From NCBI GenBank assembly GCA_963744915.1, contig CAVUUY010000011.1, positions 46,197 to 110,196 of the forward strand: 64,000 nt of DNA, read 5' to 3'. This stretch comes from an uncultured Alphaproteobacteria bacterium. Its GTDB lineage: Bacteria > Pseudomonadota > Alphaproteobacteria > Rhizobiales > Aestuariivirgaceae. Made by a program: the position numbers and the translations under genes. Of this stretch, positions 21,294 to 55,783 are shown one piece after another. The stretch's first letter is position 1; every line of letters begins with the position of its first letter. Below the pieces are notes generated by a model that was given only the letters and a program-made list of their open reading frames with translations, was not told the origin of the DNA and made no database searches.

Positions 21294-21413
21294 GTTGGGA
21301 AAAAAGGGCGGGTGCGGGCGCTGGTTCGATCGGAATGGGGCTATAAAGGGTCAATTGGCTTGTCATCTGACGCTCACCAAAAGAGCGTTCACTGAAGTCT
21401 GCCGGGGAACAAG

Positions 21414-35316: not shown

Positions 35317-35344
35317 CTATTGCCTATTGCCTATTGCCTGTCGC
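35317..35344. repeat. heptamer array (CTATTGC)3 plus one degenerate unit
   Basis: ctattgc ctattgc ctattgc ctgtcgc lies 10 nt downstream of the gloB stop, at the right edge of the low-GC segment. Confidence 0.8.
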
Positions 35345-35353
35345 TCCGCCGCC

Positions 35354-36196: not shown

Positions 36197-36944
36197 ATGT
36201 TGGATGTAGTCGATCTCCGGGAATTCTACGCAAGCCCCCTTGGGCAGATGACGCGGCGCATGCTGTCGCATCGCATCCGCTCGCGCTTCCGCGCCGGTCA
36301 GGGCGCGCGGGTGCTCGGGGTCGGCTATGCCATTCCCTATCTCGAGCCATGGCGGGCCGAAGCCGAGCGGGTGTTCGCCTTCATGCCGGCGCGGCAGGGG
36401 GTGGTGCACTGGCCGCAATCCGGCCTCAATGACGCAGCCCTGGTCGAGGAGGCCGACCTGCCGCTTCCCGATGCCTCGGTCGACCTGGCGCTGGTGGTGC
36501 ACGGGCTGGAACTGACCGACCAGCTGCCGGACCTGCTGCGCGAGCTGTGGCGGGTGCTGGCGCCGCAGGGCCGCGCCCTTCTGGTGGTGCCCAACCGGCG
36601 CGGCATGTGGGCGCGGTTCGAACTCGACGCCGTTCGGCCATGGCCGGCCGTTCTCGCGCGGCCAGCTCACCGACCTGCTGCGCGACGCCGCGTTCTCGCC
36701 CACCGGGTGGGCCTATGCGCTGTTTGCGCCGCCGATCGGCCGCAGCTTCCTGATCCGCTCGGCACCGGCTCTGGAACGGTTCGGCATGTGGATCTCGCCC
36801 GGCTTTGCCGGCCTGATCGTGGTCGAGGCGGTGAAGCAGGTCTATGCCATCTCGCGCGGCAAGCGGGCCAAGCGGCTGATGCCGGTGATCAAGCCGCGGC
36901 TCATTCCGGTGCCGTCGCTTCGGCGCAGCCGTCAGCAACACTGA
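36197..36944 (+). pseudogene. class I SAM-dependent methyltransferase, interrupted by a 1-nt insertion near 36621-36622 (probably an assembly artefact)
   Basis: The N-terminal 141 aa are in frame 1 (VLGVGYAIPYL, LVVHGLE, LAPQGRALLVVPNRRGMWARF). The conserved continuation TPFGHGRPFSRGQLTDLLRDAAFSPTGWAYALFAPPIG...RRSRQQH* is in the +1 frame and ends at 36944. Total length is 748 nt (1 mod 3). Confidence 0.75.
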
Positions 36945-36953
36945 GGGACCGCC

Positions 36954-37754
36954 ATGGCCGAGCCCCGTCCGCCGCTGCGCACGCTCGAAGACGCCCGCCA
37001 GGAAATCGACGACATCGATCTGCGGATCCTCAGCCTTCTCGAGCAGCGCTTCAATGCCAGCCGGCTGATCCGGCACATCAAGGCCCGGGAGCCCGGCAAC
37101 GGCACCGTCTCGCCGGTGCGGCCGGCGCGTGAATCGGCCATCCTGCGCCGGCTGCTCGAGCGGGCGAGCGGATCGGTGCCGCCGGCGGTGGTGGTGCAGA
37201 TCTGGCGCCGCATCATCTCGGCCTCGACCTTGCTGCAGGCGCCCGCCGTCGTGCGCTGCCCGCAGGCGCTGTTCGCCGATCCGGAGATGCGCTCGCAGAT
37301 GCGCGACCATTTCGGGACCATCCCGGTTACCGCCGTGCCGGACGAGGAATTGGCCGTCCGGGCGGTGCGCGACCGGCCGGCGGAGGTCGCCGTGGTGCCG
37401 ATCGGCGGCTATTGGGTGCAGCCGTTTCTCGACAGGCTGGGCGGCGATGCCGCGGTGATCGGGGTGCTGCCTTCGCTGTCCGACGGCAGCCCGCCGACCG
37501 CGGCGGTGATCGGCCATGCGCCGGCCGAGCGGACCGGGGCGGACGAGACGCTGGTCGCCACCTCCGGCCGGCTGCCGCGCGATTTCGTGCCGGCGCCGCT
37601 GTGGGACGTTCAGAGCGAGGACGGGCACCGGCTGACCAGCCTGCCCGGGTTCCTGTCCGAGTCCGAGCATCCGCTGATCGGCCTCCGGCGCAGCAACGAC
37701 CTGCTTGCGTTGACGGTCGTCGGCCGCTATCCGAGCCCGCTCGAGGTGAGGTGA
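36954..37754 (+). CDS. chorismate mutase (AroQ-type N-terminal domain) family protein
   Basis: [33 protein letters not shown] is the AroQ helix-1 pattern. The 266-aa gene lies upstream of hisC-tyrC, as in many Rhizobiales. Confidence 0.7.
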
Positions 37755-37756
37755 TC

Positions 37757-38860
37757 ATGACGGCAGCAAAGCCCGCGCCGCGGCCGGGCATTCTCGATAT
37801 CTCCCCCTATGTGCCGGGGAAGAGCGGCGCCCGCAGCGGCGACCGCGTCTTCAAGCTGTCGTCGAACGAATCGCCGCTCGGCCCGAGCCCGGCGGCGCTC
37901 GACGCCTTCGCCGCGGCATCCCGGCACATGCACCTCTATCCCGACGGCTCGGCGGCAGCCTTGCGCCAGGCTATCGCCGAGCGCTACGGGCTCGATGCCG
38001 AGCGCATCGTGTGCGGCGCCGGCTCGGACGAGCTCATCCAGCTCCTGGCGCATGGCTATCTCGGCCCCGGCACCGAGGCGGTTCACACCGAGCACGGATT
38101 CCTGGTCTATCCGATCGCGATCAGGGCCCAGGGGGCCAAGCCGGTGGCGGCGGCGGAGCGCAGCTTCACCGCCGATGTCGAGGCCATTGTCGGGGCGGTG
38201 ACCCCGCGCACCCGCATCGTCTTCCTGGCCAACCCCAACAATCCGACCGGCACCTTTCTGCCTTCCGGCGCGGTCGAGCGCCTGCACCGGGCATTGCCGT
38301 CGAACTGTCTGCTGGTGCTCGATGCGGCCTATGCCGAATATGTCCGCCGCAGCGACTATGAGGCCGGAGCCGCCCTCGTCTCGGCGCATGACAATGTGGT
38401 GATGACGCGGACCTTCTCGAAAGCGTACGGGCTCGCCGGCCTCAGGATCGGCTGGGCCTATTGCCCGCTCGAGGTCGCTGCCGTGCTGCACCGCATCCGC
38501 GGGCCGTTCAACGTCAGCGCACCGGCTATCGCCGCCGCGATCGCTGCCCTTGCCGACGTCGCCCATCTCGACAGCGCGGCGGCCCATAATGACCGCTGGC
38601 TGCCCTGGCTTGCGCAGGAGATCGCCGCCCTCGGCCTCGCGGTCACGCCCAGCACCGGCAATTTCCTGCTCGTCCACTTTCCAGCCGACCCGCGCCGCAA
38701 TGCCGAGCAGGCCGACCGCTTCCTCACCGCCCGCGGGCTGATCCTCAGGCGCATGGAGGCCTATGGGATCCCGCAGGCCTTGCGGCTGTCGATCGGCAGC
38801 GAGGAGGCGAACCGGCTGGTGGTCGAGGCGCTCGCTGCCTTCTGCCGGGAGCCGTCATGA
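37757..38860 (+). CDS. hisC: histidinol-phosphate aminotransferase
   Basis: ATG at 37757 gives [23 protein letters not shown]. It also has NPNNPTG and [15 protein letters not shown] (PLP lysine). Confidence 0.9.
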
Positions 38861-39786
38861 GCGCCGCGCCAGGAAAGCCGCTGTTCGATCATGTGGCGCT
38901 GATCGGCATCGGTCTCATCGGCTCGTCGCTGGCCCATGCGCTGCGCCGCGGCGGGTTGGCCGGCACCATTTCCGGCTTCGCCAAGAGCGAGGCGACGCGC
39001 GCCACGGCGCGCCGGCTCGGCATCGTCGACAGGGTGCACGAGACGGCAGCCGAGGCAGTCAGGGGAGCCGATCTGGTGGTGCTGTGCGTGCCGCTCGGCG
39101 CCTATCGCGACATTGCGGCATCGATTGCCCAGGACCTGCAGCCGGGGGCGATCCTGACCGATGTCGGCTCGGTCAAGGGCGCGGTGGTGCGCGACGTCGG
39201 GCCGCATGTCCCCCCCGGCGTCCATTTCATCCCCGGCCACCCGATCGCCGGGACCGAGCTGTCGGGGCCCGAGGCAGGCTTTGCCGAGCTGTTCGACAAT
39301 CGCTGGTGCATCCTGACGCCGCTTCCCGGCACCGCTGCCGAGCCGGTGGAGAAGCTCGCAGCCTTGTGGCGGGCGCTCGGGTCGCATGTCGACCGGATGA
39401 CGCCCGACCATCACGACCTGGCGCTCGCCATCACCAGCCATCTGCCGCATCTCATCGCCTACAATATCGTGGTGACGGCGGCCGATCTCGAAGAGGTCAC
39501 CAATTCGGAGGTGATCAAATATTCGGCCGGCGGCTTTCGTGACTTCACCCGCATCGCCGCTTCCGATCCGATCATGTGGCGCGACGTCTTCCTCAACAAC
39601 AAGGAGGCGGTGCTGGAAATGCTCGGGCGCTTCTCGGAGGACCTGTCGGCGCTGCAGCGGGCCATTCGCTGGAGCGATGGCGAGCAGCTGCTGGCGTTGT
39701 TCACCCGGGCGCGGGAGATCCGCCGCGGCATCGTCGCCGCCGGGCAGGACACGGCGCAGCCCGATTTCGGTCGCCACAGCCGCTAA
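38857..39786 (+). CDS. tyrC: prephenate/arogenate (cyclohexadienyl) dehydrogenase
   Basis: The ATG overlaps the hisC TGA. It has [14 protein letters not shown] (Rossmann), [18 protein letters not shown] and SHLPHLIAY. Confidence 0.85.
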
Positions 39787-39792
39787 GCCCGC

Positions 39793-40338
39793 ATGGCCAA
39801 CTCCTGGGTCTTCGCTTATGGCTCGCTGATGTGGCGGCCGGACATCCCCTATGCCGAGCGGCGTCAGGCGCTGCTGCATGGCCATCACCGGCGGCTTTGC
39901 ATCTACTCCTATGTGCATCGCGGCAGCCCGGAGAAGCCCGGCCTGGTGATGGGGCTCGATCGCGGCGGGGCCTGCCGCGGCATCGCCTATCGCATCGAAG
40001 CGGCGCAGTGGCCGGCCACCCTCGCCTATCTGCGAGCCCGCGAGCAGGTCACGGCCGTCTATGTCGAAAGCGAGCGTCCGGTGCGGCTGCTCGACGGCGA
40101 CCGGCGCGTGGTGACGGCGCTGGTCTACGAGGCCGACCGGAGTCATCCCCAATATGCCGGCCGCCTCGGCTTCGAGGACCAGCTGCGCCATGTGCTGCAG
40201 GGAGTGGGGGTGTCCGGCCGCTGCGTCGACTATGTGAGCCAAACGGTCGCGCATCTCGAAGAGATGAACATCCGCGACGCCGCGCTCGAAGCGCTGGCGG
40301 TGGCAATAGGCAATAGGCAAGTAGGCAATAGGCAATAG
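39793..40338 (+). CDS. gamma-glutamylcyclotransferase (ChaC family)
   Basis: WVFAYGSLMWRP and GLVMGLDRGGACRGIAYRI match the ChaC family. The last 11 codons (AIGNRQVGNRQ*) are encoded by the heptamer array. Confidence 0.8.
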   Translation: MANSWVFAYGSLMWRPDIPYAERRQALLHGHHRRLCIYSYVHRGSPEKPGLVMGLDRGGACRGIAYRIEAAQWPATLAYLRAREQVTAVYVESERPVRLLDGDRRVVTALVYEADRSHPQYAGRLGFEDQLRHVLQGVGVSGRCVDYVSQTVAHLEEMNIRDAALEALAVAIGNRQVGNRQ

Positions 40339-40411
40339 GCAAAAGACTGCGCTGCTCCTGCTCACTACTCACTACTCACTACTTGCCTATTGCCTATTTG
40401 CCTACTTGCCC
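40302..40411. repeat. composite nested inverted heptamer arrays: (GGCAATA)~6 - spacer - (CTCACTA)3 - (TTGCCTA)~4
   Basis: 40302-40343 reads ggcaata ggcaata ggcaagt aggcaat aggcaat aggcaaa. 40361-40381 reads ctcacta x3. 40383-40411 reads ttgccta ttgccta tttgccta cttgcc, the reverse complement of the left arm. The element sits between the convergent stops at 40338 and 40415. Confidence 0.9.
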
Positions 40412-40414
40412 CTT

Positions 40415-41311
40415 TCAACTCTTCCGCTCGACGATGAAGCGGGCCGCTTCGGCCAACAGCTTCGCGCGCTCGCCGAAGCGGTCGAGGGCGGCGACTGCTT
40501 CCCCGGTCAGGGCGGCTGCACGGGCCTTGGCGCCGGCAAGCCCGAAATGATCGATGAAGGTCGCCTTGCCGGCCGAGCGGTCCTTCTGGGTCGCCTTGCC
40601 GAGCGCGTCGGGGGTCGATTCGACGTCGAGGACATCATCGGCGATCTGGAAGGCGAGGCCGATCTTGTCGGCGAAGGTGGCGAGCGCGGCGCGGTCGGCG
40701 GCGCCGGCCCTGGCCAGGATGGCGCCGGCTTCGAGCGAGTAGCGGAACAGCGCTCCGGTCTTCATCCCCTGCAGCAGCACGATGTGATCGAGATCGAAGT
40801 CGCTCTGCTGCTCGGCCAGGAGATCGAGCATCTGGCCGCCGACCATGCCGGAATGACCCGCAGCGCCGGCGAGGTTGGCGATGAGGTCGACACGGATGGC
40901 GGCGTCGGGATGGGTCAGCGGATCGGCAAGGATGTCGAAGGCGAGGGTGAGCAGCCCGTCCCCGGCGAGAATGGCAGTGGCCTCGTCGAATGCCTTGTGG
41001 CAGGTCGGCTTGCCGCGCCGCAGGTCGTCATCGTCCATGGCGGGCAGATCGTCATGGACCAGCGAGTAGCAATGGACGCATTCGAGCGCGACCCCGGTGC
41101 GCAGTGCCCCCTCGGCGGGGGCATCCAGAATGCGGGCGCTCTCGGTCACGAAGAACGGCCTGATGCGCTTGCCCTGGCCAATCGCGGCATAGCGCATCGC
41201 CTCGACGATGCGCGGCGCCCGGGCATTGTCGAGCGGCAGCAGCTGGTCGAGCAGCCGGTCGACCTCGGCGGCGGTGCGCTTCAGGGCAGTTTCAAGATTT
41301 ATGCGATTCAC
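40415..41311 (-). CDS. ispA: polyprenyl (farnesyl/geranylgeranyl) diphosphate synthase
   Basis: Both Asp-rich motifs are present (LVHDDLPAMDDDDLRRGKPT and FQIADDVLD). The probable GTG start at 41311 is preceded by GGGAAAAGA. The ORF-track start is 41386. Confidence 0.85.
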   Translation of the reverse strand: MNRINLETALKRTAAEVDRLLDQLLPLDNARAPRIVEAMRYAAIGQGKRIRPFFVTESARILDAPAEGALRTGVALECVHCYSLVHDDLPAMDDDDLRRGKPTCHKAFDEATAILAGDGLLTLAFDILADPLTHPDAAIRVDLIANLAGAAGHSGMVGGQMLDLLAEQQSDFDLDHIVLLQGMKTGALFRYSLEAGAILARAGAADRAALATFADKIGLAFQIADDVLDVESTPDALGKATQKDRSAGKATFIDHFGLAGAKARAAALTGEAVAALDRFGERAKLLAEAARFIVERKS

Positions 41312-41386
41312 TCTTTTCCCGAAAGATAGGCGCGAAGCGCGGGGCAGCACGCTTGCGCGTGCCCGCCCGTGTCTTAAGGTCGGCAC

Positions 41387-42166
41387 ATGGCAAACTCAAC
41401 AGAATTGCCGAACGGGGCGTCCGGCGTCGAATTTGCGGTTGATCGGGAGCCTAAGCCCCTGGAAACCTGGGGGAAACGCGCCCTGATTGCAATCGGCGCC
41501 GTCTTTGCCATCCCCTATTTGCTGACCATCGTCTATTGGTTCGTGCCGCCACCGGTCTCGGCCACCATGCTGTGGAATGCATTGGCCGGCGACAAGATCG
41601 ACTATGCCTGGCGGCCGCTCGATCAGATCTCGCCGCGGCTGGTGAGGGCCGTGGTGACTTCCGAGGATGCCCGGGTTTGCCTGCATCACGGGGTCGACTG
41701 GGACGTGCTGAGCGACCTCTTCGCGGAGGTGACCAACGGCGAAGCGGCGAGCGTTAGGGGCGGCTCGACGATCACCATGCAGGTGGCCAAGAACCTGTTC
41801 CTGTGGCCGTACCGGTCCTACCTGCGCAAGGCGCTGGAGATCCCGCTCGCCTATTGGATCGACTTCCTGTGGAGCAAGCGGCGGGTGGTCGAGGTCTATC
41901 TGAATGTGGCAGAATGGGGGCCGGGGATCTATGGGGCGGAGGCTGCGGCGCAGCACCATTTCCGCAAATCGGCGCGGGATCTGTCGACGCGGGAGGCGGT
42001 GCTCCTGGCGGCGGCGCTGCCCAATCCGATCATGCGCCGGGCGGGGCGGCCGGGCAACCAGCTCGAGCGCATGGCGGGGCGGCTCAAGCGCCGGATCCCT
42101 GGCTCGATCGCCTATCTCGACTGCCTGGACCGGGATGGCGCAACGAAAATCTCTGGCCAGAACTGA
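41387..42166 (+). CDS. mtgA: monofunctional biosynthetic peptidoglycan transglycosylase
   Basis: 259 aa with an N-terminal TM helix and the GT51 motifs SEDARVCLHHGVDW, GGSTITMQVAKNLFL and RKALEIPLA. Confidence 0.9.
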   Translation: MANSTELPNGASGVEFAVDREPKPLETWGKRALIAIGAVFAIPYLLTIVYWFVPPPVSATMLWNALAGDKIDYAWRPLDQISPRLVRAVVTSEDARVCLHHGVDWDVLSDLFAEVTNGEAASVRGGSTITMQVAKNLFLWPYRSYLRKALEIPLAYWIDFLWSKRRVVEVYLNVAEWGPGIYGAEAAAQHHFRKSARDLSTREAVLLAAALPNPIMRRAGRPGNQLERMAGRLKRRIPGSIAYLDCLDRDGATKISGQN

Positions 42167-42235
42167 TGTCGCCCTGTATAAGCCGCCGCGACTTTCGAGC
42201 CGCCGGCGGCGGGCTCATGCGTTGGAGATTGACCG

Positions 42236-42421
42236 ATGGCTGTTCCCAAGAAAAAAACCTCGCCGTCCAAGCGCGGGATGCGGCGTTCCGGCCATAAGAT
42301 GGCCAAGCCGACCTATGTCGAGAACAAGCAGACGGGCGAGCTGCACCGGCCGCACCACATCGACCTGAAGACCGGGATGTATCGCGGCCGCAAGGTGCTG
42401 GAGCCGAAGAGCGAGTTCTGA
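42236..42421 (+). CDS. rpmF: 50S ribosomal protein L32
   Basis: [18 protein letters not shown]..., 61 aa. Confidence 0.95.
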
Positions 42422-42429
42422 GCCATCGC

Positions 42430-42831
42430 ATGCAGTTCGCGGCCGCCTTCCCGTTTCTGATCGTCGTCATCCTCATCTACAATCTCATCGTCTTCCTGTC
42501 GGCGACGGCGCTCGGCGACACGGTGCTGTCGGTGCCGATGATGTCGGGGGCGGTCCTCGGCGTCACCATCGGCGATTTGGTGGTCCTGCTCGGGCTTGTC
42601 GTGCTGTTCATCGAGGTGCTGAAATCGGCGCGCGCGGCCGCCTCGACGATTCTCGATCACATGCTGTCGACCGCGGTGTTCATCGTGGCCCTGGTCGAGT
42701 TCCTGATCGTCCGCCAGGCGGGGACGGCGGTGTTCCTCATCATCACCACGATCTGCCTGATCGATGTGGTGGCGGGCTATACGGTGTCGATCCGATCGGC
42801 GCGGCGCGACATCGCCTTCGACAATGGCTGA
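42430..42831 (+). CDS. hypothetical integral membrane protein
   Basis: 133 aa with four hydrophobic segments. It starts 9 nt after rpmF. No family was recognised. Confidence 0.55.
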   Translation: MQFAAAFPFLIVVILIYNLIVFLSATALGDTVLSVPMMSGAVLGVTIGDLVVLLGLVVLFIEVLKSARAAASTILDHMLSTAVFIVALVEFLIVRQAGTAVFLIITTICLIDVVAGYTVSIRSARRDIAFDNG

Positions 42832-42834
42832 GCC

Positions 42835-45163
42835 TCAGCTGCAGGTCGAATGGCCGCAGGCGAGACAGGTGGCGCAGCCTTCCTGAAAGGCCAGCGCCGC
42901 CTCGCCGCATTTCGGACATTGCGCAACCCGTGCTGCCGCCAAGGCGCGGCTCAGTGGCGGCGCCGGCTGATTGTCGGTCGTATCGCGCGCGTCGCCATCC
43001 TTGCGGATGAAGCCCTGATCGACGAGATGCCGCTCGATGATCCCGCCGATCGCCGCCAGCAGGCTTGGTACGTAGCGGCCGTCGAGCCACTGGCCGCCGC
43101 GCGGATCGAACACCGCCTTGAGCTCCTCGACGACGAAGGCAATGTCGCCGCCGCGGCGGAAAACCGCCGAGATCATGCGGGTCAGAGCCACCGTCCAGGC
43201 ATAATGTTCCATATTTTTGGAATTGATGAAAATTTCGAACGGCCGGCGCCGCCCCAGTTCCTCGATGTCGTTGATGGTGATGTAGATGGCATGGTCCGAG
43301 TTCGGGCCATTTGAGCTTGTAGGTGAAGCCGGGCAGAACCGGGCTCCTGGCAAGCGGCTGGCGCATCCACACGACGCCGCTATCGCCCTGATCGGCACCG
43401 GCAGCATCGGCATCGGCGCCGGCGGGGATGGGAGCGGTGATGGCGCTCCCGCCAGTCGTCAGGACGGCGCCGGTGACGGCATTGGGGCGGTAGGTGGTGC
43501 ACCCCTTGAGGCCGAGATCATAGGCCTCCTCATAGATTTGCCGGAACGCCTCGAAGCTGATGTCCGCCGGGCAGTTGATGGTCTTGGAGATCGATGAATC
43601 GATATGCCGCTGCAGCGCCGCCTGCATCCGCAAATGCTCGGCCGGGGTGAGGTCGGCGGCGGTGACGAAGGCAGGCGGCAGGGTCGCATCGGGACCGTGC
43701 AGCGTGCGGAAAGCCCTGACCGCATAGTCCTCGACGGTCTCCTGCCGATGGCTGCCATCCGCCTCCAGGAGCTTGCGCTCGTAGCGCAGGGCGAAGATCG
43801 GCTCGACGCCGCTCGACACATTGCCGGCGAAGAGCGAGATGGTGCCGGTTGGGGCCACGGTGGTGAGGAGCGCATTGCGGATGCCGTCGCGGCGAATGGC
43901 GGCGCGCAGCTCGGCGGGCAGGGTCCGGACATGGCCGGAAGCGAGATAGCGCTCGGCATCGAACAGCGGGAAGGGGCCTTTCTCGCGGGCAAGCTCGACG
44001 CTGGCCCGATAGGCCGCTGCCTCGATCGCCGCCATCCAGGACGAGGCCTGCTGCGCTGCCGCGGGGCTGCCATAATGCAGGCCGCACATGGCGAGCGCAT
44101 CGGCAAGGCCGGTGATGCCGAGGCCGACGCGGCGCTTGCTGCGGGCCTCCTCGGCCTGGCGCGGCAGCGGATAGGCTGATACGTCGATGACATTGTCGAG
44201 CAGGCGGACGGCGGTGGCGGCGGTGGCCGCGAGCTGAGCGGTGTCGAGCCCGGCCTCGGCGGTGAAGGGCCGCTCGACGAAGCGGGCGAGATTGACCGAG
44301 CCGAGAAGGCAGGCGCCATAGGGCGGCAGCGGCTGCTCGCCGCAGGGATTGGTGGCCTGGATGGTCTCGCAATAGCCGAGGTTGTTCGCGGCATTGATGC
44401 GGTCGATGAAAATCACCCCGGGCTCGGCGACCTCATAGGTCGCCCGCATGATCTGGTCCCACAATTGGCGGGCGCGGACGGTGCGGTAGACCGTTCCGGC
44501 GAAAACCAGGGGCCAATCGCCATCGTTCTTGACGGCGGTCATGAACGCGTCGCTCGCGAGCACCGAAAGGTTGAACATGCGCAGCCGCTTCGGATCGCGC
44601 TTGGCGGCTATGAAAGCCTCGATGTCGGGATGGTCGCAGCTGAGCGTCCCCATCATGGCGCCGCGGCGCGACCCGGCCGACATGATGGTGCGGCACATGG
44701 AATCCCAGACGTCCATGAAGCTCAAGGGACCGGAGGCATCGGCGCCGACGCCCCGGACCGGGGCGCCCTTGGGCCTGAGGGTGGAGAAGTCGTGGCCGAT
44801 GCCGCCGCCCTGCTGCATGGTGAGGGCGGCTTCCTTGAGCCCCTCGAAGATCCCGTCCATGGAATCGGGGATGGCGCCCATGACGAAGCAGTTGAACAGG
44901 GTGACGCGACGGCCGGTGCCGGCGCCGGCCAGGATGCGTCCGGCGGGGAGGAATCGGTGATCCTCCATGACCTTCAGGAACGCCTCCTCCCAATGGGCGC
45001 GCCGGGCCGGCGCCTCGACCGCGGCCAAGGCCTGCGCCACGCGTTGCCAGGTGGCCTCGACGGATTGCTCGAGCGGCGCCCCGCCATCGGATTTGAGACG
45101 GTATTTCAGGTCCCAGATGGCGCGCGAGATCGGGTCGGCGGCGTTGGCGGGAAGGGATGTCAT
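42835..45163 (-). pseudogene. nrdJ: vitamin B12-dependent (class II) ribonucleotide reductase, interrupted by a 1-nt insertion at about 43301-43302 (probably an assembly artefact)
   Basis: The N-terminal ~620 aa (806-aa ORF) carry class II RNR motifs (FLPAGRIL, NPCGEQPLPPYGACLLGS, ISKTINCP). The conserved C-terminus (SDHAIYITINDIEE...FEIFINSKNMEHYAWTVALTRMISAVFRRGGD...CPKCGE...CLACGHSTCS*) continues in the 192-aa ORF 42835-43413. Total length is 2329 nt (1 mod 3). Confidence 0.8.
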
Positions 45164-45219
45164 CGGATCGCGATGCCTGTCGGGTGTTCTCTTTTTGTAC
45201 TCTAGCGGATCGGCAGCTC

Positions 45220-46377: not shown

Positions 46378-46458
46378 GGGGCACCGGAAGTGAGGCGCAT
46401 CGCCTCGGAAACAGTGCCTTAGATAGTCGAAAAACCCGGAAATGCGAGCCTTTTTTAT

Positions 46459-46986
46459 CTATTTGCAGTGTTGGTCGATCTTCTCCATGGCCTGCTTCAC
46501 GCCGGACAGCGAGTAGCTGTCGACGGTGGAGGTGCCGCGCCACGAGGTGCCCTTCACCTCCATCTTCTTGCCCTTCTTCATGGCGTCGACGATGGTCGTA
46601 TCCTTCGAATCCGACCACGCGCCGTCGCCCTTGGTGAACAGGTTGAAGTCGTCGCCGTCGATGGTCAGCGTGGCCGTCGACTCCTTCTTGAAGGCATAGC
46701 CGATGATGGTGTTGACCTCGTTGCGGACATTGTCGCCGGGGCGGTGGGTGACGAGGAAGAACACGGGGTCGCGCTTGGCCCCTTCCGGCTCGGATTTCTT
46801 GGGCTGCGAGACGATGTAGCAGACCTGGCCGGTCGGGGTTTTGTAGCTGTAGGCCGCCCAATCGCTGAACTCGCCGACGAGCGACGGCTTGGGCTGAGCC
46901 TTGTCGGCGGTCTGCGCTGCGGCGACCGACACGACCGAAACCAGACCGAACAACCCCAATCCGAGCCAGCTGATGACGCCGCGCAT
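46459..46986 (-). CDS. invasion-associated locus B (IalB) family protein
   Basis: 175 aa with a signal peptide. WAAYSYKTPTGQVCYIVS and the C-terminal CK match the IalB family pattern. Confidence 0.75.
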   Translation of the reverse strand: MRGVISWLGLGLFGLVSVVSVAAAQTADKAQPKPSLVGEFSDWAAYSYKTPTGQVCYIVSQPKKSEPEGAKRDPVFFLVTHRPGDNVRNEVNTIIGYAFKKESTATLTIDGDDFNLFTKGDGAWSDSKDTTIVDAMKKGKKMEVKGTSWRGTSTVDSYSLSGVKQAMEKIDQHCK

Positions 46987-47133
46987 GCCCCTCGACTCCT
47001 GTTGAATCGTGCGGCCACCCCCCGCACCACCGTTAAGCTATGGGCAATTCTGACGAGAATTGGGCAAGGGATATCGTGCGCCGCAAGAAAGCTCTATCCA
47101 AGGCGGCTCTAAGACAGTTCAGGGGATCGTTTC

Positions 47134-48111: not shown

Positions 48112-48131
48112 CCCGCCGAGACGAGCACTGT

Positions 48132-48169
48132 CCTATTGCCTATTGCCCATTGCCTATTGCCTGTTGCCC
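48132..48169. repeat. degenerate heptamer array (CCYRTTG)5
   Basis: cctattg cctattg cccattg cctattg cctgttg ccc starts 21 nt after the qor-like stop and about 170 nt upstream of ffh. Confidence 0.85.
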
Positions 48170-48337
48170 GCACATGGCCTAGAAGGCCGGCACATTCCGG
48201 AAGACGCTTGAAGCCTCTTCTTGCCCCGCTCACATGGTGCTTGCGCACGCACCGGGAGGCGCGGGGTCCGACACCCGCCAGCGATGTTCGCCCGCGGGTG
48301 CAATGGCGTTTGAGGCGTCCGAAAGAGACGAGGACAG

Positions 48338-49918
48338 ATGTTCGAGACACTGCAGGAACGGCTTTCCGGAATTTTCGACCGGCTCACCGGGCGCGGATCG
48401 CTGTCGGAAGCCGATGTCGATGCGGCAATGCGGGAGGTGCGGCGGGCCCTGATCGAGGCCGATGTCGCGCTCGAGGTGGTGCGTTCCTTCACCGAGCAGG
48501 TGCGCCAGCGCGCGATCGGCCAGGAGGTCGTCCGGTCGATCAAGCCGGGCCAGATGGTGATCAAGATCGTGCACGACGCCCTCGTCGACACGCTTGGACG
48601 CGATGCCGTGCCGCTCGATCTCAAGGCGGCGGCGCCGGTGCCGGTGCTGATGGTCGGCCTGCAGGGCTCGGGCAAGACCACGACCACCGCGAAGATCGCC
48701 AAGCGGCTCAAGGAGCGTGAGCGCAAGCGGGTGTTGATGGCCTCCCTCGACACCGCGCGGCCGGCCGCCCAGGAGCAGCTAGCGATCCTCGGACGCCAGA
48801 TCGGGGTGGACACCCTGGCGATCGTCAAGGGCGAGAAGGCGCTGGACATCACCCGGCGGGCCCTGGACGAGGCGCGGCGCGGCGGCTTCGACGTGCTGAT
48901 GCTCGATACCGCCGGGCGGCAGCATATCGATGAGACGCTGATGAACGAGGTGGTTGCGGTCCGCGACATCGCAAAGCCGCACGAGACGCTGCTCGTCGCC
49001 AATTCGCTGACCGGCCAGGACGCCGTCAATCTCGCCCGCAGCTTCGATCAGCGGGTCGGGGTCAGCGGCATCGTGCTCACCCGCGTCGATGGCGATGGCC
49101 GCGGCGGTGCGGCGCTGGCGATGCGGGCGGTGACGGGCAAGCCGATCAAGCTCATCGGCACCGGCGAGCGGCTGGACGGGCTCGAGGACTTCCACCCCGA
49201 GCGGATCGCCGGGCGGATTCTCGGCATGGGCGACGTGGTGAGCCTGGTCGAAAAGGCGGCGCTCGAGATCGACGCCGACAAGGCACGAAAGATCGCCGCC
49301 CGCATGAAGAAGGGCGCCTTCGATCTCGACGACCTGGCGGAGCAGCTGAAGCAGCTGCAGAAGCTTGGCGGCATGTCTGGCGTCATGGGCCTGCTGCCCG
49401 GCCTCGGCAAGGCCAGGAAGCAGCTCGACAATATCGATCTCGACAAGCTCGTGCTGGGGCGGCAGCTGGCGATCATCGGCTCGATGACCATGTTCGAGCG
49501 GCACAATCCCAAGGTGCTCAACGCCTCGCGCAAGAAGCGTGTTGCCAAGGGTTCCGGCACCGAGGTGCAGGAGATCAACCGTCTGCTCAAGATGCATCTG
49601 CAGATGGGCGACATGATGAAGCGGATGGGCAAGCAGCGGGGCGGCCTTTTCGGCGGCCTGTTCGGCGGCGGCCAGCCGAGCGTCGACATGGCCGAGCTCG
49701 AGCGGCTGCAGGGCGAGCTCAAGAACCTCGATCCCGCGGCGCTGCCGCCGGAGCTGAGAAACCTGCCGCCGCTCGATGGCGGGTTGCCGAAAACCCTCCC
49801 GGGGCTCGGTGCCGCGGGTGGCGGGCTGCTGCCCGGGCTCGGCGGCCGCCGAGCCCCGCAAGGGCCGGGGCTCGGTGGTCCCAAGGGCCTTCCCGGCTTC
49901 CCCTTCAAGAAGAAATGA
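48338..49918 (+). CDS. ffh: signal recognition particle protein Ffh
   Basis: 526 aa with MFETLQERLSGIFDRL, GLQGSGKTTT, DTAGR and a Met-rich M domain. It has a Gly/Pro/Leu-rich C-terminal tail. Confidence 0.95.
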   Translation: MFETLQERLSGIFDRLTGRGSLSEADVDAAMREVRRALIEADVALEVVRSFTEQVRQRAIGQEVVRSIKPGQMVIKIVHDALVDTLGRDAVPLDLKAAAPVPVLMVGLQGSGKTTTTAKIAKRLKERERKRVLMASLDTARPAAQEQLAILGRQIGVDTLAIVKGEKALDITRRALDEARRGGFDVLMLDTAGRQHIDETLMNEVVAVRDIAKPHETLLVANSLTGQDAVNLARSFDQRVGVSGIVLTRVDGDGRGGAALAMRAVTGKPIKLIGTGERLDGLEDFHPERIAGRILGMGDVVSLVEKAALEIDADKARKIAARMKKGAFDLDDLAEQLKQLQKLGGMSGVMGLLPGLGKARKQLDNIDLDKLVLGRQLAIIGSMTMFERHNPKVLNASRKKRVAKGSGTEVQEINRLLKMHLQMGDMMKRMGKQRGGLFGGLFGGGQPSVDMAELERLQGELKNLDPAALPPELRNLPPLDGGLPKTLPGLGAAGGGLLPGLGGRRAPQGPGLGGPKGLPGFPFKKK

Positions 49919-49946
49919 CCGCAATGCAACTTGAGGAGCATCGTCA

Positions 49947-50318
49947 ATGACCCTGAAAATCCGCTTGGCCCGCGGCGGCGCCAAGAAGCGGCCCTATTAC
50001 CGCATCGTGGTGGCGGACTCGAATGCCCCGCGCGACGGCCGCTTCATCGAGAAGATCGGTGCCTGGAACCCGATACTGCCCAAGGGCTCGCCCGACCGGG
50101 TGACGCTCGATACCGAGCGGGCGAAGCACTGGCTGTCGGTCGGCGCCCAGCCGACCGACCGGGTGGCGCGCTTCCTCGATGCCTCCGGCCTGCGGCCGCG
50201 CGGCGCCCGCAGCAATCCGAGCAAGGCGCTGCCGGGCAAGAAGCGGACCGAGCGCGAGAAGGCCGAGGCGGAGGCGCGCAAGGCCCGCGAGCAGGCGGAG
50301 CCGCAGCCGCCGGCCTGA
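49947..50318 (+). CDS. rpsP: 30S ribosomal protein S16
   Basis: [38 protein letters not shown]... Confidence 0.95.
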
Positions 50319-50337
50319 GGCTTGCGGTGGCCGCGTC

Positions 50338-50865
50338 ATGAGCAATGCGGGCCGCGTCCTTCTCGGCGTGATCACCGGTGCCCACGGCGTGCGCGGCGCG
50401 GTGCGGCTCAAAAGCTTCACCGGCACGCCGGAGGCGATCGCCGCCTATGGTGCGGTCGGCCTCGGCGACACTGGACGGGAGGCGGTGATAAGGACGCTGC
50501 GGCCGGCCGGCGAGGACTTCATTGCGGTGCTCGATGGCGTGACCGACCGCAACGCTGCCGAAGCGCTCAAGGGATGTCACCTGCATGTGGCGCGTGACCG
50601 GCTGCCGGCGCCGGCCGCTGACGAGGTCTATGTCGGCGACATGATCGGGCTTCAAGTCTATCTCAGGGACGGCAGCCTGCTCGGCGAGGTGGCGGCGGTC
50701 ATGGATTTCGGCGCGGGCGACCTGCTCGAGATCAGGAGCGCCGCCCGCCGCCACACCATCATGATCCCGTTCGTCAGTGCGATGGTGCCCGAGGTCGATG
50801 TGGCGAGGCGCCGGATCGTGGTGGACCCGCCCGAGGGGCTGATCGAGGCGCAGGAGCAGCCATGA
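50338..50865 (+). CDS. rimM: ribosome maturation factor RimM
   Basis: ATG at 50338 gives [28 protein letters not shown]. It has a PRC-barrel C-terminus and sits between rpsP and trmD. Confidence 0.9.
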
Positions 50866-51566
50866 GCTTCCGGGCAACCGTGCTCACCCTCTATCCGGAA
50901 ATGTTTCCGGGGCCGCTCGGGCATTCGCTTGCCGGCAAGGCGCTCGAGCGCGGCCTGTGGTCGCTCGAAGTCTCGGACATCCGGGCGGCGGCGCAGGACC
51001 GGCACCGGACGGTCGACGACAGCCCGGCGGGGGGCGGACCCGGCATGGTGATGCGGGCCGACGTGCTGGCACGCGCCATCGACGGTGCGACCGATGCCGG
51101 GGAACGGCGGCGTCGCCTGCTGATGAGCCCGCGCGGCCGCAAGCTCGACCAGGCGCTGGTGCGGCAGCTGGCGGCGGAACCGGGAGTGCTGATCGTGTGC
51201 GGGCATTTCGAGGGCGTCGACGAGCGGATCGTTGCCGCCCGGCAGCTCGAGGAGGTGTCGGTCGGCGACTATGTGCTGTCGGGCGGCGAGGCGGCGGCGC
51301 TGATCGTGCTCGATGCGGCGGTCAGGCTGTTGCCCGGCGTCATCGGGACGGCGCGCTCGAGCGAGGATGAAAGCTTCGAGCAGGGGCTGCTCGAGCATCC
51401 CCACTACACGCGGCCGCGCCTGTTCGAAGGCGTGGCGATCCCTGAGGTGCTGCTGTCGGGCGATCACCAGGCGATCGCCCGCTGGAAGCGGGTCGAGTCG
51501 GAGATGGCGACGCGCCACCGCCGGCCTGATTTGTGGAGCTTGCGGCGGCCGAAGGACGGTGGCTGA
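50862..51566 (+). CDS. trmD: tRNA (guanine37-N1)-methyltransferase
   Basis: The ATG overlaps the rimM TGA. It has [36 protein letters not shown] and [11 protein letters not shown]. Confidence 0.95.
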
Positions 51567-51646
51567 TTCATGGCCCGTTGCGGGCGTGGTTGATTTTTAA
51601 CCGGATCGCCGGTACACAGCCGGCAACTCTTTCAAAGGTAGCCAAG

Positions 51647-52075
51647 ATGAACATCATCCAGGAGCTCGAGCGCGAGCAGGCGGAAAAGATTGCTGCCAAG
51701 CGGCAAGTTCCGGATTTTTCCCCCGGCGACACCGTGGTGGTCGCGGTCAGGGTCAAGGAAGGCGAGCGCTCCCGCATCCAGAATTACGAGGGCGTGGTGA
51801 TTGCCCGCTCGGGTTCGGGCCTCAACGAGAATTTCACCGTTCGCAAGATCTCCTATGGCGAGGGGGTCGAGCGGGTGTTTCCCGTTTATTCACCGCTGGT
51901 TGACGGCATCAAGGTGGTGCGGCGCGGCAAGGTGCGGCGGGCCAAGCTCTATTATCTGCGCGGCCGCACCGGCAAGTCGGCCCGCATTGCCGAGCGGATG
52001 CGCGGAGTGGGCGTCGAAAGCGCCCCGGCGGCCCCGGCTACCCCCGCTGCCCCGGCCGCTGAGCAGGCGGAATAG
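51647..52075 (+). CDS. rplS: 50S ribosomal protein L19
   Basis: ATG at 51647 gives [11 protein letters not shown]...FSPGDTVVV...[12 protein letters not shown], with an Ala/Pro-rich C-terminal tail. Confidence 0.93.
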
Positions 52076-52100
52076 CCGCCAGGCAGCTGCCGGTTGGCGG
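52076..52100. terminator. possible bidirectional stem-loop between convergent rplS and tal
   Basis: ccgcca/tggcgg form an outer stem around a ggcagctgcc palindrome. The structure fills the whole 25-nt gap. There is no U-tract, so this is weak. Confidence 0.3.
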
Positions 52101-52751
52101 TCAGATGGTCTGGCCGGTTTTCTTCCAGTCGGCGGTGAAGGTCTCGATCCCCTTGTCGGTCAGGGGGTGCTTCACCAGCGCCCTCAGCACCGAAGGCGGG
52201 ACTGTCGCCACGTCGGCACCGGCCAGGGCGGCATATTTGACATGGTTGACGCTGCGGATCGAGGCGGCGAGGATTTCCGTCTCGAAATCGTAATTGTCGT
52301 AAATCTGACGGATCTCCTCGATCACTTCCATGCCGTCGAGACCGGCATCATCGAGTCGGCCGATGAAGGGCGAGATGAAGGCGGCTCCGGCCTTGGCGGC
52401 AAGCAGCGCCTGATTGGCATTGAAGCACAGCGTCACATTCACCTTGGTGCCGGCCTGCGACAGGGTGCGGCAGGCCTTGAGGCCGTCCCACGTCATCGGC
52501 ACCTTGACCGCGACATTGGGTGCAAGCTCGGCAAGGCGGCGCCCTTCGGCCAGCATGCCGTCGGCGTCAAGGGCCGCCACCTCGGCGCTGACCGGCCCAT
52601 CGACAACGGCGCAGATCTCGCGAATGACGTCCTTGAAATCACGCCCGGACTTGGCAACGAGGCTCGGATTGGTTGTGACGCCGTCGAGGAGCCCCATGGC
52701 GGACAGCTCCCGGATTTCCCCAATCTCTGCGGTATCGGCGAAAAATTTCAT
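52101..52751 (-). CDS. tal: short-type transaldolase / fructose-6-phosphate aldolase family
   Basis: 216 aa with [24 protein letters not shown] and [11 protein letters not shown] (Schiff-base lysine). Confidence 0.9.
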
Positions 52752-52837
52752 GATGCCTCCAATATTGGGCTTGCCATAGCATAACGGCGCGACCAGTACA
52801 CCGGTAGCGACCTTGCGCCGCCAATTCGCACCCGATC

Positions 52838-55012
52838 ATGAGCAACCGCCCTACGACCGTCGATGTGCTGCTGCCCTATGCGCTCGCGGGTTGCTATTCC
52901 TATACGGTGCCGCTGCATCTTGAAGTCGCGGCCGGCGATTTTGTTCATGTGCCGCTCGGCACCCGCCATGCCGTCGGGGTGGTGTGGGGGGACCGCCCGC
53001 AGCCCGCACCCGACCTCAAGCTCCGGCCGATCGCCGCCCGCTTCGCGCTGCCGGCGCTGCCGGAGCTGACGCGGCGCTTCATCGAATGGATTGCCGCCTA
53101 TTATCTCGAGCCGGAAGGCAGCATCCTCCGCCTGTGCCTCAGGGTGCCGGGGGTGTTCGATGCCCGCCGCGAGACGATCGGCTATGTCGCCGGCGAGGCC
53201 GAGCCGGAGAAGCTGACGCCGCAGCGGGCGCGGGTGCTTCAGGTGGCGCGGGCGACGGGGGTGCCGCTCAGGGCAAACGAGCTCGCGGCGGAAGCGGCGG
53301 TCGGGGTCGGGGTGGTGCGCGGCCTGGCCCGGCAGGGGGCCCTTGCGGAGGTGGCGCTGTCGCCTTTCCTGCCCTTCGCCGCCCCCGATCCGCTGGGCCA
53401 CCGGGTCGCCCTCAATCCGGAGCAGACGGCGGCGGCCGAGCAGCTGCGCCGGGCGGTGGCGGCGCGCAGCTTCTCGGTCACGCTGGTCGACGGCGTCACC
53501 GGCTCGGGCAAGACCGAGGTCTATTTCGAGGCAATGGCGGCGGCGCTGGCCCAAGGCCGGCAGGTGCTGCTGCTGTTGCCGGAAATCGCCCTCACCCAGA
53601 GCTTTCTCGAACGGGTCGAGCGCCGGTTCAAGGCGGAGCCGGCGGAATGGCATTCGGGGGTCCGGCCGCGCGAGCGCGAGCGGGTGTGGCTCGGCGTCGC
53701 ATCGGGGGCGGCCAAGGTGGTGGTGGGGGCGCGCTCGGCCCTGTTCCTGCCGTGGCGCAATCTCGGTCTCATCGTGGTCGACGAGGAGCACGAGCCGGCC
53801 TTCAAGCAGGAGGACGGTGTCCGCTACCATGCCCGCGACATGGCGGTGGTGCTGGGCTCGCTCGGCCGCTTCCCGGTGGTGCTCGCCTCGGCCACGCCGT
53901 CGCTCGAATCGCTGGTCAATGCCGGGCGGCAGCGCTACCAGCATCTGATTCTCAGGCACCGCCACGGAGCCCGCAAGGAGATCCCGAGCGTCGAGCTGAT
54001 CGATCTGAGGTCGGCCGGGCCGGAGTCCGGCCGCTGGCTGTCGCCGGCTTTGGTCGGCGCCATCGGAGAGGCGATCGCAGCCGGCGACCAGGTCCTGCTT
54101 TTCCTCAACCGGCGAGGCTATGCGCCGCTGACGCTGTGCCGCGCCTGCGGCCATCGGATCGAATGCCCGAACTGCTCGGCGTGGCTGGTCGAGCACCGCT
54201 TCAAGCGGCAGCTGCTCTGCCATCATTGCGGCCACCAGCAGCCGACGGCGACGCGCTGCCCGGCCTGCGCCGCGGAGGGCGCGCTGGTGCCCTGCGGTCC
54301 GGGGATCGAGCGGCTGGCCGAGGAAGCCTTGGCGCTGTTCCCGGCGGCGGCAATGACGCTTCTCTCCTCCGATCTCAACCGCGGCAGCCTGCTCAAGGAT
54401 GCCCTGAGCGACGCCGCAAAGGGCCGCTACAATCTGCTGATCGGCACCCAGCTCGTCGCCAAGGGCCATCATTTTCCCGGCCTGACATTGGTCGGGGTCG
54501 TCGATGGCGATCTCGCGCTCGAGACCATCGATCCACGGGCCGGCGAGCGCACCTGGCAGATCCTGGCGCAGGTGGCCGGGCGGGCCGGGCGGGGCGAGCG
54601 GCCGGGGCGGGCGCTGGTGCAGACCCATCTTCCCGGCCATCCGCTGATGCAGGCGCTGGCGGCCGGTGATCGCGACCGGTTTCTCAGCCACGAGCGGCGG
54701 GTCCGCGAGGCAGCGCTGCTGCCGCCCTTCGGCCGGCTCGCCGGGATCATCGGATCGGCCCGCGATGCCGGCGAGGTCGAGCGCTTCATGCGGGCGCTGG
54801 CGCGGCGGGTGCCGGTCGGCCGGGAGGTGACGGTGCTCGGACCGGCGCCGGCGCCGATGGCGCTGGTCCAGGGCCGGCATCGCTGGCGTTTCCTGGTGCG
54901 GGCCGGCCGCGAGGTCAATCTGCAGAGCTTCCTTACCGACTGGCTCGGCGGCGTCGCCCCCAAGGGCTCGCTCAAGCTCGAGGTGGATGTCGATCCGTAC
55001 AGCTTTCTCTAG
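52838..55012 (+). CDS. priA: primosomal protein N' (replication restart helicase PriA)
   Basis: 724 aa with [11 protein letters not shown] (Walker A), VVDEEHE and a Cys-rich zinc-binding insert ([21 protein letters not shown]...CHHCGHQQP...CPACA). Confidence 0.93.
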
Positions 55013-55031
55013 GGCGGCAGGCCACGCACCG

Positions 55032-55063
55032 CCTGTTGCCCATTGCCCTGTTGCCCATTGCCT
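55032..55063. repeat. degenerate heptamer array (CCYRTTG)4
   Basis: cctgttg cccattg ccctgttg cccattg cct starts 20 nt after the priA stop and about 160 nt upstream of atpH. Confidence 0.8.
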
Positions 55064-55221
55064 CGCCTTCAGCGTGTTGCCTTTCCGCGCCAGCCTGTGA
55101 TAGGAGGTCAGCCGCGAAGCCGTCTTGCCCCCGGGCGAGGCGCGCTACCCCGTGTAATTCCACGAACAAGCAAGAAATTGGGAAACATCCCGGGGCGGTG
55201 CACAAGGGAGAGGGGCCAATC

Positions 55222-55783
55222 GTGACGGCCAAGGAACAGTCCATATCGGGCATGCCCGGCCGCTATGCGACGGCGCTGTTCGAGCTGGCGCAGCAGGAAG
55301 AGGCGATCGAGGATGTCGGCGAGGCTCTCAACCGCTTCGCGACCCTGGTGAACCAGTCGCCCGACCTGATGCGGCTGGTGCGCAATCCGGTGTTTTCCGC
55401 CGCCGACCAGATCAGGGCGCTCAACGCCGTTCTGGAGCGGGCAGCCATTGCCGGGCTGGCGGCCAAGCTCATCCTGCTGGCGGCGCAGAACCGCCGGCTC
55501 TATGCCATTCTCGACATGATCGGCGCCTATGAGGCGCTGCGGGCCGAGGCGAGGGGCGAGACCACCGCCCAAGTGATCTCGGCGGAGCCCTTGTCGGAGG
55601 CCCAGGCGCAGGCCTTGAAGGACGAGCTCAAGCGGCTGCTCGGACGCTCGATCAGCCTCACCGCTGCGGTCGATCCGGCGATCCTCGGCGGCCTTGTCGT
55701 CAAGGCCGGGTCGCGGATGGTCGAACTCGTCGCTCAGAACCAAGCTGAACAATCTCAAGACGGCCATGAAAGGGACCGCCTGA
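55222..55783 (+). pseudogene. atpH: F0F1 ATP synthase delta subunit, interrupted by a 1-nt insertion at 55724-55725 (probably an assembly artefact)
   Basis: GTG at 55222 follows [21 protein letters not shown] and [18 protein letters not shown] match AtpH. The conserved end [18 protein letters not shown] is in the +1 frame, and its TGA overlaps the atpA ATG (TGATG). As read, the ORF fuses in frame to atpA (759-aa ORF 55036-57315). Confidence 0.8.

Follow-up and report, generated by a model that had tools for sequence, protein, structure and literature searches.

The window analysed here, i.e., the whole stretch of DNA of 64,000 nucleotides, raises the question of why three conserved genes are frameshifted in it, given that two of them, atpH and nrdJ, are expected to be essential. 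The host is an uncultured, Aestuariivirgaceae-like member of the Alphaproteobacteria; its closest NrdJ relatives (85-86% amino acid identity) are Aestuariivirgaceae MAGs (Hyphomicrobiales, Alphaproteobacteria). The three genes that look broken are not pseudogenes; in each of them a single A has been wrongly added at a GANTC site. The frameshifts are very probably consensus errors of a long-read metagenome assembly (most likely Oxford Nanopore R10.4.1) that arise, probably, via GANTC methylation, and not mutations.

The first-pass annotation, made from the sequence alone, had stated that the three genes have lengths of 1 mod 3 and break at a common 8-mer. Both statements agree with the data, as the lengths are 748, 2329, and 562 nt and all three genes switch frame at CGAACTCG in the window (Table 1). 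The switch lies at MWARF/ELDAV in the methyltransferase gene (versus FDSTPFGHG in the other frame), at KLKWP/ELGPC in nrdJ (versus NSDHAIYITIND), and at GSRMV/ELVAQ in atpH, from where the frame runs into atpA and gives a 759-aa ORF. The peptides predicted after repair, MWARFDSTPFGHGRPFS, KLKWPDSDHAIYITIND, and a third one of 23 letters, are encoded, letter for letter, by the intact genes of L093 (ENA ERZ25039602 contig_27493), an independent long-read-style assembly of the same species. The predicted overlap of the atpH stop and the atpA start is likewise found there as TGATG. The repaired 7-mer had been proposed to contain a GANTC site, and the true CGACTCG indeed holds GACTC.

Table 1. Extra-A sites, affected genes, and substitutions at GANTC in the window; "reads" are those of other runs, and L081 is a further assembly.
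Feature	Position	Strand	Description	Supporting data
Extra-A site 1	36619..36626	+	CGA[A]CTCG; true CGACTCG (GACTC = GANTC); breaks class-I SAM methyltransferase gene	
Extra-A site 2	43297..43304	-	CGA[A]CTCG on sense strand; extra A is T on + strand; breaks nrdJ	
Extra-A site 3	55722..55729	+	CGA[A]CTCG; shifts atpH 3' end, fusing atpH in frame to atpA	
SAM-dependent methyltransferase gene (Methyltransf_11)	36197..36944	+	248 aa without the spurious base; window ORFs split	
nrdJ, class II ribonucleotide reductase	42835..45163	-	Ribonuc_red_lgN, Ribonuc_red_lgC, TSCPD; 775 aa intact	
atpH (OSCP / F1 delta subunit)	55222..55783	+	186 aa intact; GTG start	
Window AACTC, probably a miscall of GACTC (G1>A)	3197	+	False Asp>Asn	X2 contig reads G; single run covers site
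Window GAGTT, reads GAGTC	21296	-	C5>T (G1>A on - strand); just past a stop codon	X1, X4, X9 unanimous
Window GAATT, reads GAATC	22993	-	False Ser>Leu, large NAD-glutamate dehydrogenase gene	X1, X2, X4, X9 unanimous
Window GATTT, reads GATTC	28626	-		X1, X4, X9 unanimous
Window GAATT, reads GAATC	37351	-	False Ser>Leu, chorismate mutase-domain gene	X1, X4, L081
Window AACTC, reads GACTC	39799	+	False Asp>Asn	X1, X4, X9, L081
Window AAATC (sense strand), reads GAATC	41300	-	Polyprenyl synthase start codon ATG to ATA	X1, X4
Window GATTT, reads GATTC	43539	-	Within nrdJ	X4, X9
Window AATTC, reads GATTC	49001	+	False Asp>Asn in ffh (SRP54)	X2, X4, X9, four Illumina RNA runs, L081
Window AATTC, reads GATTC	52823	+	False Asp>Asn near priA start	X4, X9
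Window AATTC, reads GATTC	57664	+	False Asp>Asn in atpG	X2, X4
Window AATTC, reads GATTC	60024	+		X2, X4, X9 unanimous

Near-identical metagenome contigs (0-2 mismatches per 0.5-2 kb) were obtained from four other runs of three studies, namely, X1, X2, X4, and X9. An Illumina label is recorded only for X48-X51, and X1-X9 are called short-read-type without a platform label. Compared with these contigs, the window has exactly three indels in 64 kb, at 36621, 43301, and 55724, and the absence of any other indel across 1-64000 bears out the earlier claim that no further genes are broken. At each of the three positions the base is missing in 100% of the covering depth, being left out in contigs of X2, X4, and X9 at 36621, of X1, X4, and X9 at 43301, and of X2 and X4 at 55724. 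A metatranscriptome contig (X51, paired Illumina RNA-seq) also lacks the base at 43301. The variants of the window are not found in data of the same genome that should be insensitive to modification, these being contigs of X1, X2, X4, and X9 and, for 43301 and 49001, contigs of the Illumina runs X48-X51. Additional indels seen at 90% likeness (40319, 40321, and 40397) belong to other strains, lie in a GGCAATA heptamer repeat, and are gone at 99% likeness.

Assemblies of the same species were also compared with the window. Over ~21 kb (window 35218-56378), L093 shows 11 mismatches and exactly three gaps, which are the three sites, and its methyltransferase gene, nrdJ, and atpH are all intact; the 248-aa methyltransferase product carries PF08241, and L093-L095 encode an intact OSCP of 186 aa. 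Among the long-read-style assemblies, 36621 is expanded in 5/6 (absent in L093), 43301 in 2/7, and 55724 in 1/5, the latter two expansions being absent in L092-L095. A site that is wrong in one assembly can be correct in another, so that the errors are not deterministic. Further A-duplications at GANTC occur in sister assemblies at 46679, 15331, 28138, and 21701. The motif-specific sequencing or assembly error favored by the first-pass annotation is upheld by the absence of the extra base in same-strain contigs at all three sites, by the intact genes of the sister assembly, and by an A-expansion that comes and goes between assemblies.

Could the extra A's nevertheless be genuine mutations, i.e., real pseudogenes or the outcome of a motif-specific mutational hotspot? 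The frequent expansion at 36621, together with a second assembly from another sample that is expanded at both 36621 and 43301, would fit such an origin. It is extremely unlikely, as the extra base occurs in no short-read-type contig (four runs and one Illumina RNA run, all depth), sister assemblies of 99.9% identity lack it in differing combinations, nrdJ and atpH would be inactivated, and a matching class of substitution errors is found at the same motif in the same assemblies. The frameshift of a pseudogene is expected in all sequence data of a lineage, and this is not the case here. Programmed recoding, by ribosomal +1/-1 frameshifting or transcriptional slippage at CGAACTCG, might account for the presence of one 8-mer at the frame switch of three genes, and is scarcely conceivable given that the 8-mer has no slippery run (no homopolymer, no X XXY YYZ heptamer), that the frame continues unchanged through the five other copies, that the RNA-derived contig is unexpanded, and that the base is missing from sister-assembly DNA as well. 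Moreover, the nrdJ site reads TGGCCCGACTCGGAC in the closest relatives L001 and L002 and CCCGACTCGGAC in the closest relatives, and no shift of frame occurs here in any of the 79 relatives.

The determinant of the error is GANTC, not the 8-mer. Eight copies of CGAACTCG are present in the window (6441+, 11340-, 20040-, 36619+, 43297-, 55722+, 57828-, and 62123-), and CGACTCG occurs unexpanded three times (51494-, 52352-, and 59384+). Five copies of the 8-mer are genuine and in frame and the three CGACTCG copies are unexpanded, which rules the 8-mer out as determinant. The earlier lists of these copies were right for the in-frame copies at 6441, 11340, 20040, and 57828 and for CGACTCG at 51494; they overlooked the copies at 62123 and 52352, and gave 59383 for 59384. 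The number of 8-mers is itself unremarkable (8 observed vs 3.6 expected; 6/100 shuffles reach 8). All three indels of the window fall inside GANTC (binomial p = 4e-7), and sister assemblies show this error also at CGACTCC and cgtcGACTCctt, and as GACTC to GACTTC and GATTC to GATTTC. A-duplication is concentrated in tCGACTCg-like contexts; the worst context for errors is tCGACTCGa.

Substitutions hit the motif as well, and at 11-12 sites the window reads AANTC or GANTT in place of a true GANTC (Table 1). At 12 positions, at least two runs unanimously contradict the window, and at 11/12 of these the reads restore GANTC; among single-run SNPs, 1/32 does so. The polyprenyl synthase gene, which loses its start codon in the window, starts at 10332 in L081, with the difference at 10334. 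At 21296, extra-A errors are seen as well, in four sister assemblies.

Altogether, 15/120 true GANTC sites are wrong in the window (about 12.6%) and 105/120 are called correctly. In four good sister assemblies, 38/239 GANTC sites are wrong (15.9%) vs 64/28,094 control pentamers (0.23%), and 10/28 of the 1-bp indels in six good assemblies are inside GANTC vs 0.7% expected. Error positions of the window coincide with GANTC for 3/3 indels and 11/12 consistent substitutions. The errors touch all four variants (GACTC, GAGTC, GAATC, and GATTC), occur on either strand, and have diverse flanking sequences; the affected base is always the target adenine or the G that precedes it. The bases are wrong, the errors lie at GANTC, and their occurrence between assemblies is stochastic. 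Their frequency is uneven; most GANTC sites are never wrong, 36621 is wrong in five of six assemblies, and several error kinds are found at 21292. With regard to composition, GANTC has an observed/expected ratio of 0.79 in the window and GASTC of 0.52 (maximal-order Markov estimate), a depletion within the range of other NNNNN palindrome-like words; GANTC being only mildly under-represented, composition provides no independent support for methylation.

Two motif-independent or modification-independent origins have to be weighed against these figures. The indels may be consensus artefacts from collapsed co-occurring strains, irrespective of any motif: mismatches and indels number in the hundreds in four sister assemblies (L084, L087, L089, and L090), as is typical of a consensus built at low coverage or from mixed strains, and a patch rich in mismatches lies at 39260-39800. 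Such an origin is very improbable, since the window has no indels beyond the three and no SNPs adjoin them, and it would leave both the exclusive location in GANTC and the recurrence in clean assemblies unexplained. More can be said for a basecaller or polisher biased by sequence context at k-mers such as CGACTCG, with no DNA modification involved. The majority of GANTC sites are correct, the insertion type is strongly context-dependent in that A-duplication clusters in tCGACTCg-like contexts, sister assemblies have many insertion errors outside GANTC too, and methylation itself is inferred. This bias is still quite unlikely to be the cause, in that all four variants are affected, in diverse flanking sequences and on either strand, the errors are confined to the target adenine and the G before it, the sites have a methylation motif and not one k-mer in common, and the signature is that of the published methylation-induced RA/TY ambiguity (PMC11610573).

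GANTC methylation, a CcrM gene, and the Nanopore platform would each fit the error signature and the literature. The sister contigs are from ENA assemblies of one series (ERZ25039464-602), have Flye-style names (contig_N), and measure 21-418 kb; names, contig sizes, and error profile suggest a Nanopore origin for the window and ERZ25039xxx alike. These features would also fit the Microflora Danica data set, produced with R10.4.1, Guppy sup, Flye, and Medaka (PMC12313526). A probe of the window and 98 retrieved loci for a CcrM-like gene gave no match.

CcrM is conserved in Alphaproteobacteria, and in this organism a CcrM-type enzyme probably N6-methylates both strands of GANTC. The modified adenine would distort the signal of the surrounding k-mer, and a basecaller and polisher untrained on the modification may then call the G 5' of the methyl-adenine as A (GANTC to AANTC, or GANTT for the other strand) or, in a second error class, call the adenine twice (GANTC to GAANTC or GANTTC). 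The error would be carried by part of the reads only, probably those of one strand, and because of this the erroneous call may win the consensus or not depending on the site, the sequence context, and the sample. Insertions in coding sequence lead to frameshifts and were hence visible in the first-pass annotation; the substitutions read as missense and are invisible from one sequence by itself. In Caulobacter, GANTC sites are left unmethylated or hemimethylated through bound regulators, a possible cause of uneven error frequency. That the site-to-site frequency also reflects the in-situ methylation state of single GANTC sites, and not k-mer context alone, is unlikely; if errors did mirror site methylation, public long-read assemblies would hold a readable methylome footprint.

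The genes are intact in the organism and there is no biological novelty; with the frameshifts being an assembly artefact, the relevance is limited to data quality. The damage in the window amounts to three false pseudogenes, one false start-codon loss, and a number of spurious missense changes (Asp>Asn, Ser>Leu). As the error rate is the same in sister assemblies of this species, pseudogene counts may be systematically inflated in long-read-only alphaproteobacterial MAGs generated with models that are not methylation-aware, and dN/dS may be skewed and GANTC sites lost from motif analyses as well. A signature for screening is GAANTC/GANTTC at frame breaks, and AANTC/GANTT where relatives read GANTC.

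Systematic errors at Dam (GATC) and Dcm (CCWGG) sites in older R9.4 Nanopore assemblies, which are removable through methylation-aware models or short-read polishing, resemble the present ones as motif-specific consensus errors from a cell-cycle or orphan methyltransferase, whereas motif, chemistry, and error type all differ here. For R10.4.1, methylation-induced errors have been described as A/G and C/T ambiguities with the minimal motif RA/TY and a strand bias, and the bacterial R10.4.1/Kit 14 ambiguities of Lohde et al. (2024) are gone in methylation-free data (PMC11610573). In agreement with that study, purine/purine or pyrimidine/pyrimidine confusion is found beside an adenine (here G>A at G1, complement C>T), some copies of the motif are spared, and the profile varies among samples of one genome. 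In contrast to that study, which concerns isolates and substitutions only ('insertion' and 'indel' occur 0 times in the text), the present errors include adenine duplication that leads to frameshifts, and they concern a known motif, GANTC, in a soil metagenome assembly. Published methylation-induced errors are mostly substitutions, and the papers cited here yielded no description of such insertions. GANTC has been linked to Nanopore assembly errors in agrobacteria (PMC12710330) and in Brucella, with two GANTC cases (PMC12392509), and methylation-aware models lower the GANTC-associated errors (PMC12710330, PMC12392509). The errors reported here share with both the motif, the class, the clustering at the CcrM target, and the partial occurrence; they differ in extent, since mainly SNP errors with very few GANTC cases were reported there, whereas the errors found here affect about 13-21% of GANTC sites and include insertions that disrupt housekeeping genes.

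The extra A at 36621 (methyltransferase), 43301 (nrdJ) and 55724 (atpH) is a consensus error, and the frameshifts are no feature of the organism. The window contains eight copies of the octamer CGAACTCG, where 3.6 would be expected (at least eight in 6 of 100 shuffles), and three of them coincide exactly with the frame change of a conserved protein. That these breaks share the octamer in genes whose lengths are all 1 mod 3, as claimed in the first-pass annotation, is borne out by the window ORFs (748, 2329 and 562 nt for methyltransferase, nrdJ and atpH, respectively); in atpH, the shifted frame continues into atpA, giving a 759-aa fusion ORF. The motif coordinates of that annotation were otherwise right, but it missed CGAACTCG at 62123 and, at 52352, the third of the unexpanded CGACTCG sites. 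The other five CGAACTCG copies are in frame and genuine, since metagenome contigs span them without gaps.

Positions of motif copies, corrected sites and repeat arrays in the window
Feature	Position	Strand	Remark
CGAACTCG	36619	+	SAM-methyltransferase gene, frame switch
CGAACTCG	43297	-	nrdJ, frame switch
CGAACTCG	55722	+	atpH, frame switch
GANTC-restoring positions	21296, 22993, 28626, 37351, 39799, 41300, 43539, 49001, 52823, 57664, 60024		at least two runs unanimous
GGCAATA arrays	35316-35345, 40302-40401, 48132-48168, 55032-55062		

Sampled 31-mers of the nrdJ region were present at 50-92% in 20 public soil/rhizosphere metagenome runs. For X1, X2, X4 and X9, four runs representing three studies, Logan contigs, which resemble short-read data in contig size and depth (platform not on record), were aligned to the whole window at a likeness of at least 99%. 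These contigs (0.3-3.9 kb) carry 0-3 mismatches to the window, and across the 64 kb they show no indels except a single missing base at each of 36621 (X2, X4, X9), 43301 (X1, X4, X9) and 55724 (X2, X4), in every case with 100% of the covering depth. The base at 43301 is likewise missing from a contig of a paired Illumina metatranscriptome (X51), which spans 43281-43534 with 0 mismatches.

Nine assemblies in a single accession series (ERZ25039464-602; contigs named contig_N, 21-418 kb in size) yielded loci in look-ups with two intact proteins. ERZ25039566 contig_26133, from a sister strain (21 mismatches to the window in 16.6 kb), encodes the exact 806-aa frameshifted NrdJ product of the window; the additional A is present at both its nrdJ and its methyltransferase site, and another one lies at window position 46679 (gtCGA[A]CTCct). 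Over 21 kb, the ERZ25039602 locus shows 11 mismatches to the window and only three gaps, which are exactly the three focal sites. All three genes are intact in this locus, encoding a 248-aa methyltransferase, a 775-aa NrdJ with TSCPD domain and a 186-aa OSCP, and they contain verbatim the three repaired peptides predicted earlier. Overall, 36621 is expanded in 5/6 assemblies, 43301 in 2/7 and 55724 in 1/5. Because the extra A comes and goes among 99.9%-identical assemblies and never occurs in short-read-type contigs, it represents a consensus error. Among relatives, the nrdJ site is in frame in all 79 that cover the position. The closest genomes are Aestuariivirgaceae MAGs (Alphaproteobacteria, Hyphomicrobiales) with 85-86% NrdJ identity, of which one (L001) reads TGGCCCGACTCGGAC, i.e., the window sequence less one A, and another (L002) reads TGGCCCGACTCCGAC, with GACTC likewise present.

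At 12 positions, at least two runs unanimously contradict the window, and 11 of these restore GANTC from AANTC or GANTT; among 32 single-run differences only one does so, at 3197, where a single run provides the coverage. Of the 120 true GANTC sites in short-read-supported sequence, 15 (12.6%) are wrong in the window, namely, by six G1>A and six C5>T substitutions (first and last base of GANTC; the same change on opposite strands) and three duplications of an A:T pair at position 2 or 4. The substitutions yield false Asp>Asn and Ser>Leu changes, and at 41300 the start codon of polyprenyl synthase (40415-41302, - strand) reads ATA instead of the ATG found in short-read contigs and ERZ25039566 contig_26133.

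The sister assemblies provide a control independent of the window. GANTC was wrong at 15/70, 11/70, 11/65 and 1/34 sites in ERZ25039513, ERZ25039602, ERZ25039566 and ERZ25039464, versus 6/8291, 23/8296, 30/7382 and 5/4125 control pentamers, respectively (pooled, 38/239 or 15.9% versus 64/28,094 or 0.23%). In the six cleaner assemblies, 10 of 28 1-bp indels lie inside GANTC (0.7% expected). Twelve of 14 insertions inside GANTC double an A or T belonging to a target A:T pair, and the remaining two both come from the poorest assembly. The one deletion (GATTC to GATC at window position 53949 in ERZ25039513 contig_2504) splits priA, for which the window is correct, into ORFs of 320 and 386 aa. GANTC is thus the motif that matters, and CGAACTCG represents the A-duplicated form of GACTC in tCGACTCg, the flank most prone to error. 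The earlier reading of motif-specific sequencing or assembly error is thus supported by the contigs lacking the base and the intact ERZ25039602 genes; the GANTC-derived context of the octamer held, and the scope widened from octamer to GANTC, with the number of errors rising from three insertions to 15. The affected window bases are wrong, with two recurring error types that are stochastic between assemblies. The only alternative that carries weight is a k-mer bias independent of modification, and it is disfavoured because the errors strike each of the four GANTC variants, occur on either strand and have varied flanks.

Several other irregularities were observed. An error hot spot lies at 21292-21296 (ccctGAGTCggg, directly after a stop codon), where the window has C5>T; in four sister assemblies an additional A is inserted in differing placements, and two of these show GACTC for GAGTC. 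Several sister assemblies (L082, L084, L087, L089, L090, L092, L094 and L097) carry many single-base insertions outside GANTC, mostly extra G/C, with far fewer deletions; these split, among others, a 1601-aa NAD-glutamate dehydrogenase, purH and sdhA. The tandem heptamer GGCAATA (period 7; 16 matches versus 0.18 expected) occupies at least four intergenic places, at 40302-40401 as two arrays in inverted orientation that face each other across a CTCACTA repeat, and its copy number varies by strain (21-nt insertion behind 48131 in X9). A Pro/Gly-rich CCCCGGC-type repeat (19778-19850) between the LemA-like and TPM-domain genes differs in length between assemblies, three of which have the region called as one 497-505-aa product. 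Between window 39260-39800 and ERZ25039566 contig_26133 (11835-12377), strains otherwise 99.9% identical, 18 of the 21 mismatches, together with three gaps of 1 bp, cluster in the prephenate dehydrogenase gene, truncated in the latter; short-read contigs back the window form, and the patch may reflect recombination or a mixed-strain consensus. Short-read contigs also link 29226/29232 to 35320 (X2, X9), omitting about 6.1 kb and ending on the right inside a GGCAATA array, and 9292 to 10559 (X2, X4, X9); because each join has a match of just 20-21 bases on one side, both may be repeat-associated graph artefacts instead of real deletions.

The main value of the finding is as a warning for long-read-only alphaproteobacterial MAGs. 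The ERZ25039464-602 assemblies resemble the long-read set of Microflora Danica, a candidate source, which was produced with SQK-LSK114, Guppy sup, Flye and one Medaka round (r1041_e82_400bps_sup_g615) (PMC12313526). GANTC is the CcrM target in Alphaproteobacteria, and GANTC-linked assembly errors are on record for agrobacteria (PMC12710330) and Brucella (PMC12392509); no ccrM gene was found in the window or fetched loci. Methylation-induced errors of R10.4.1/Kit 14 data are A/G and C/T ambiguities with the minimal motif RA/TY, are strand-biased, and reach the assembly at only some positions (PMC11610573). In light of these errors, the CcrM target and the GANTC-linked reports, the extra A would be a double call of a putative N6-methyl-adenine, and its roughly 50:50 fate in the consensus would stem from an error limited to the reads of one strand. 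The G1>A change of GANTC in the window is exactly the RA ambiguity of the published R10.4.1 errors (PMC11610573).
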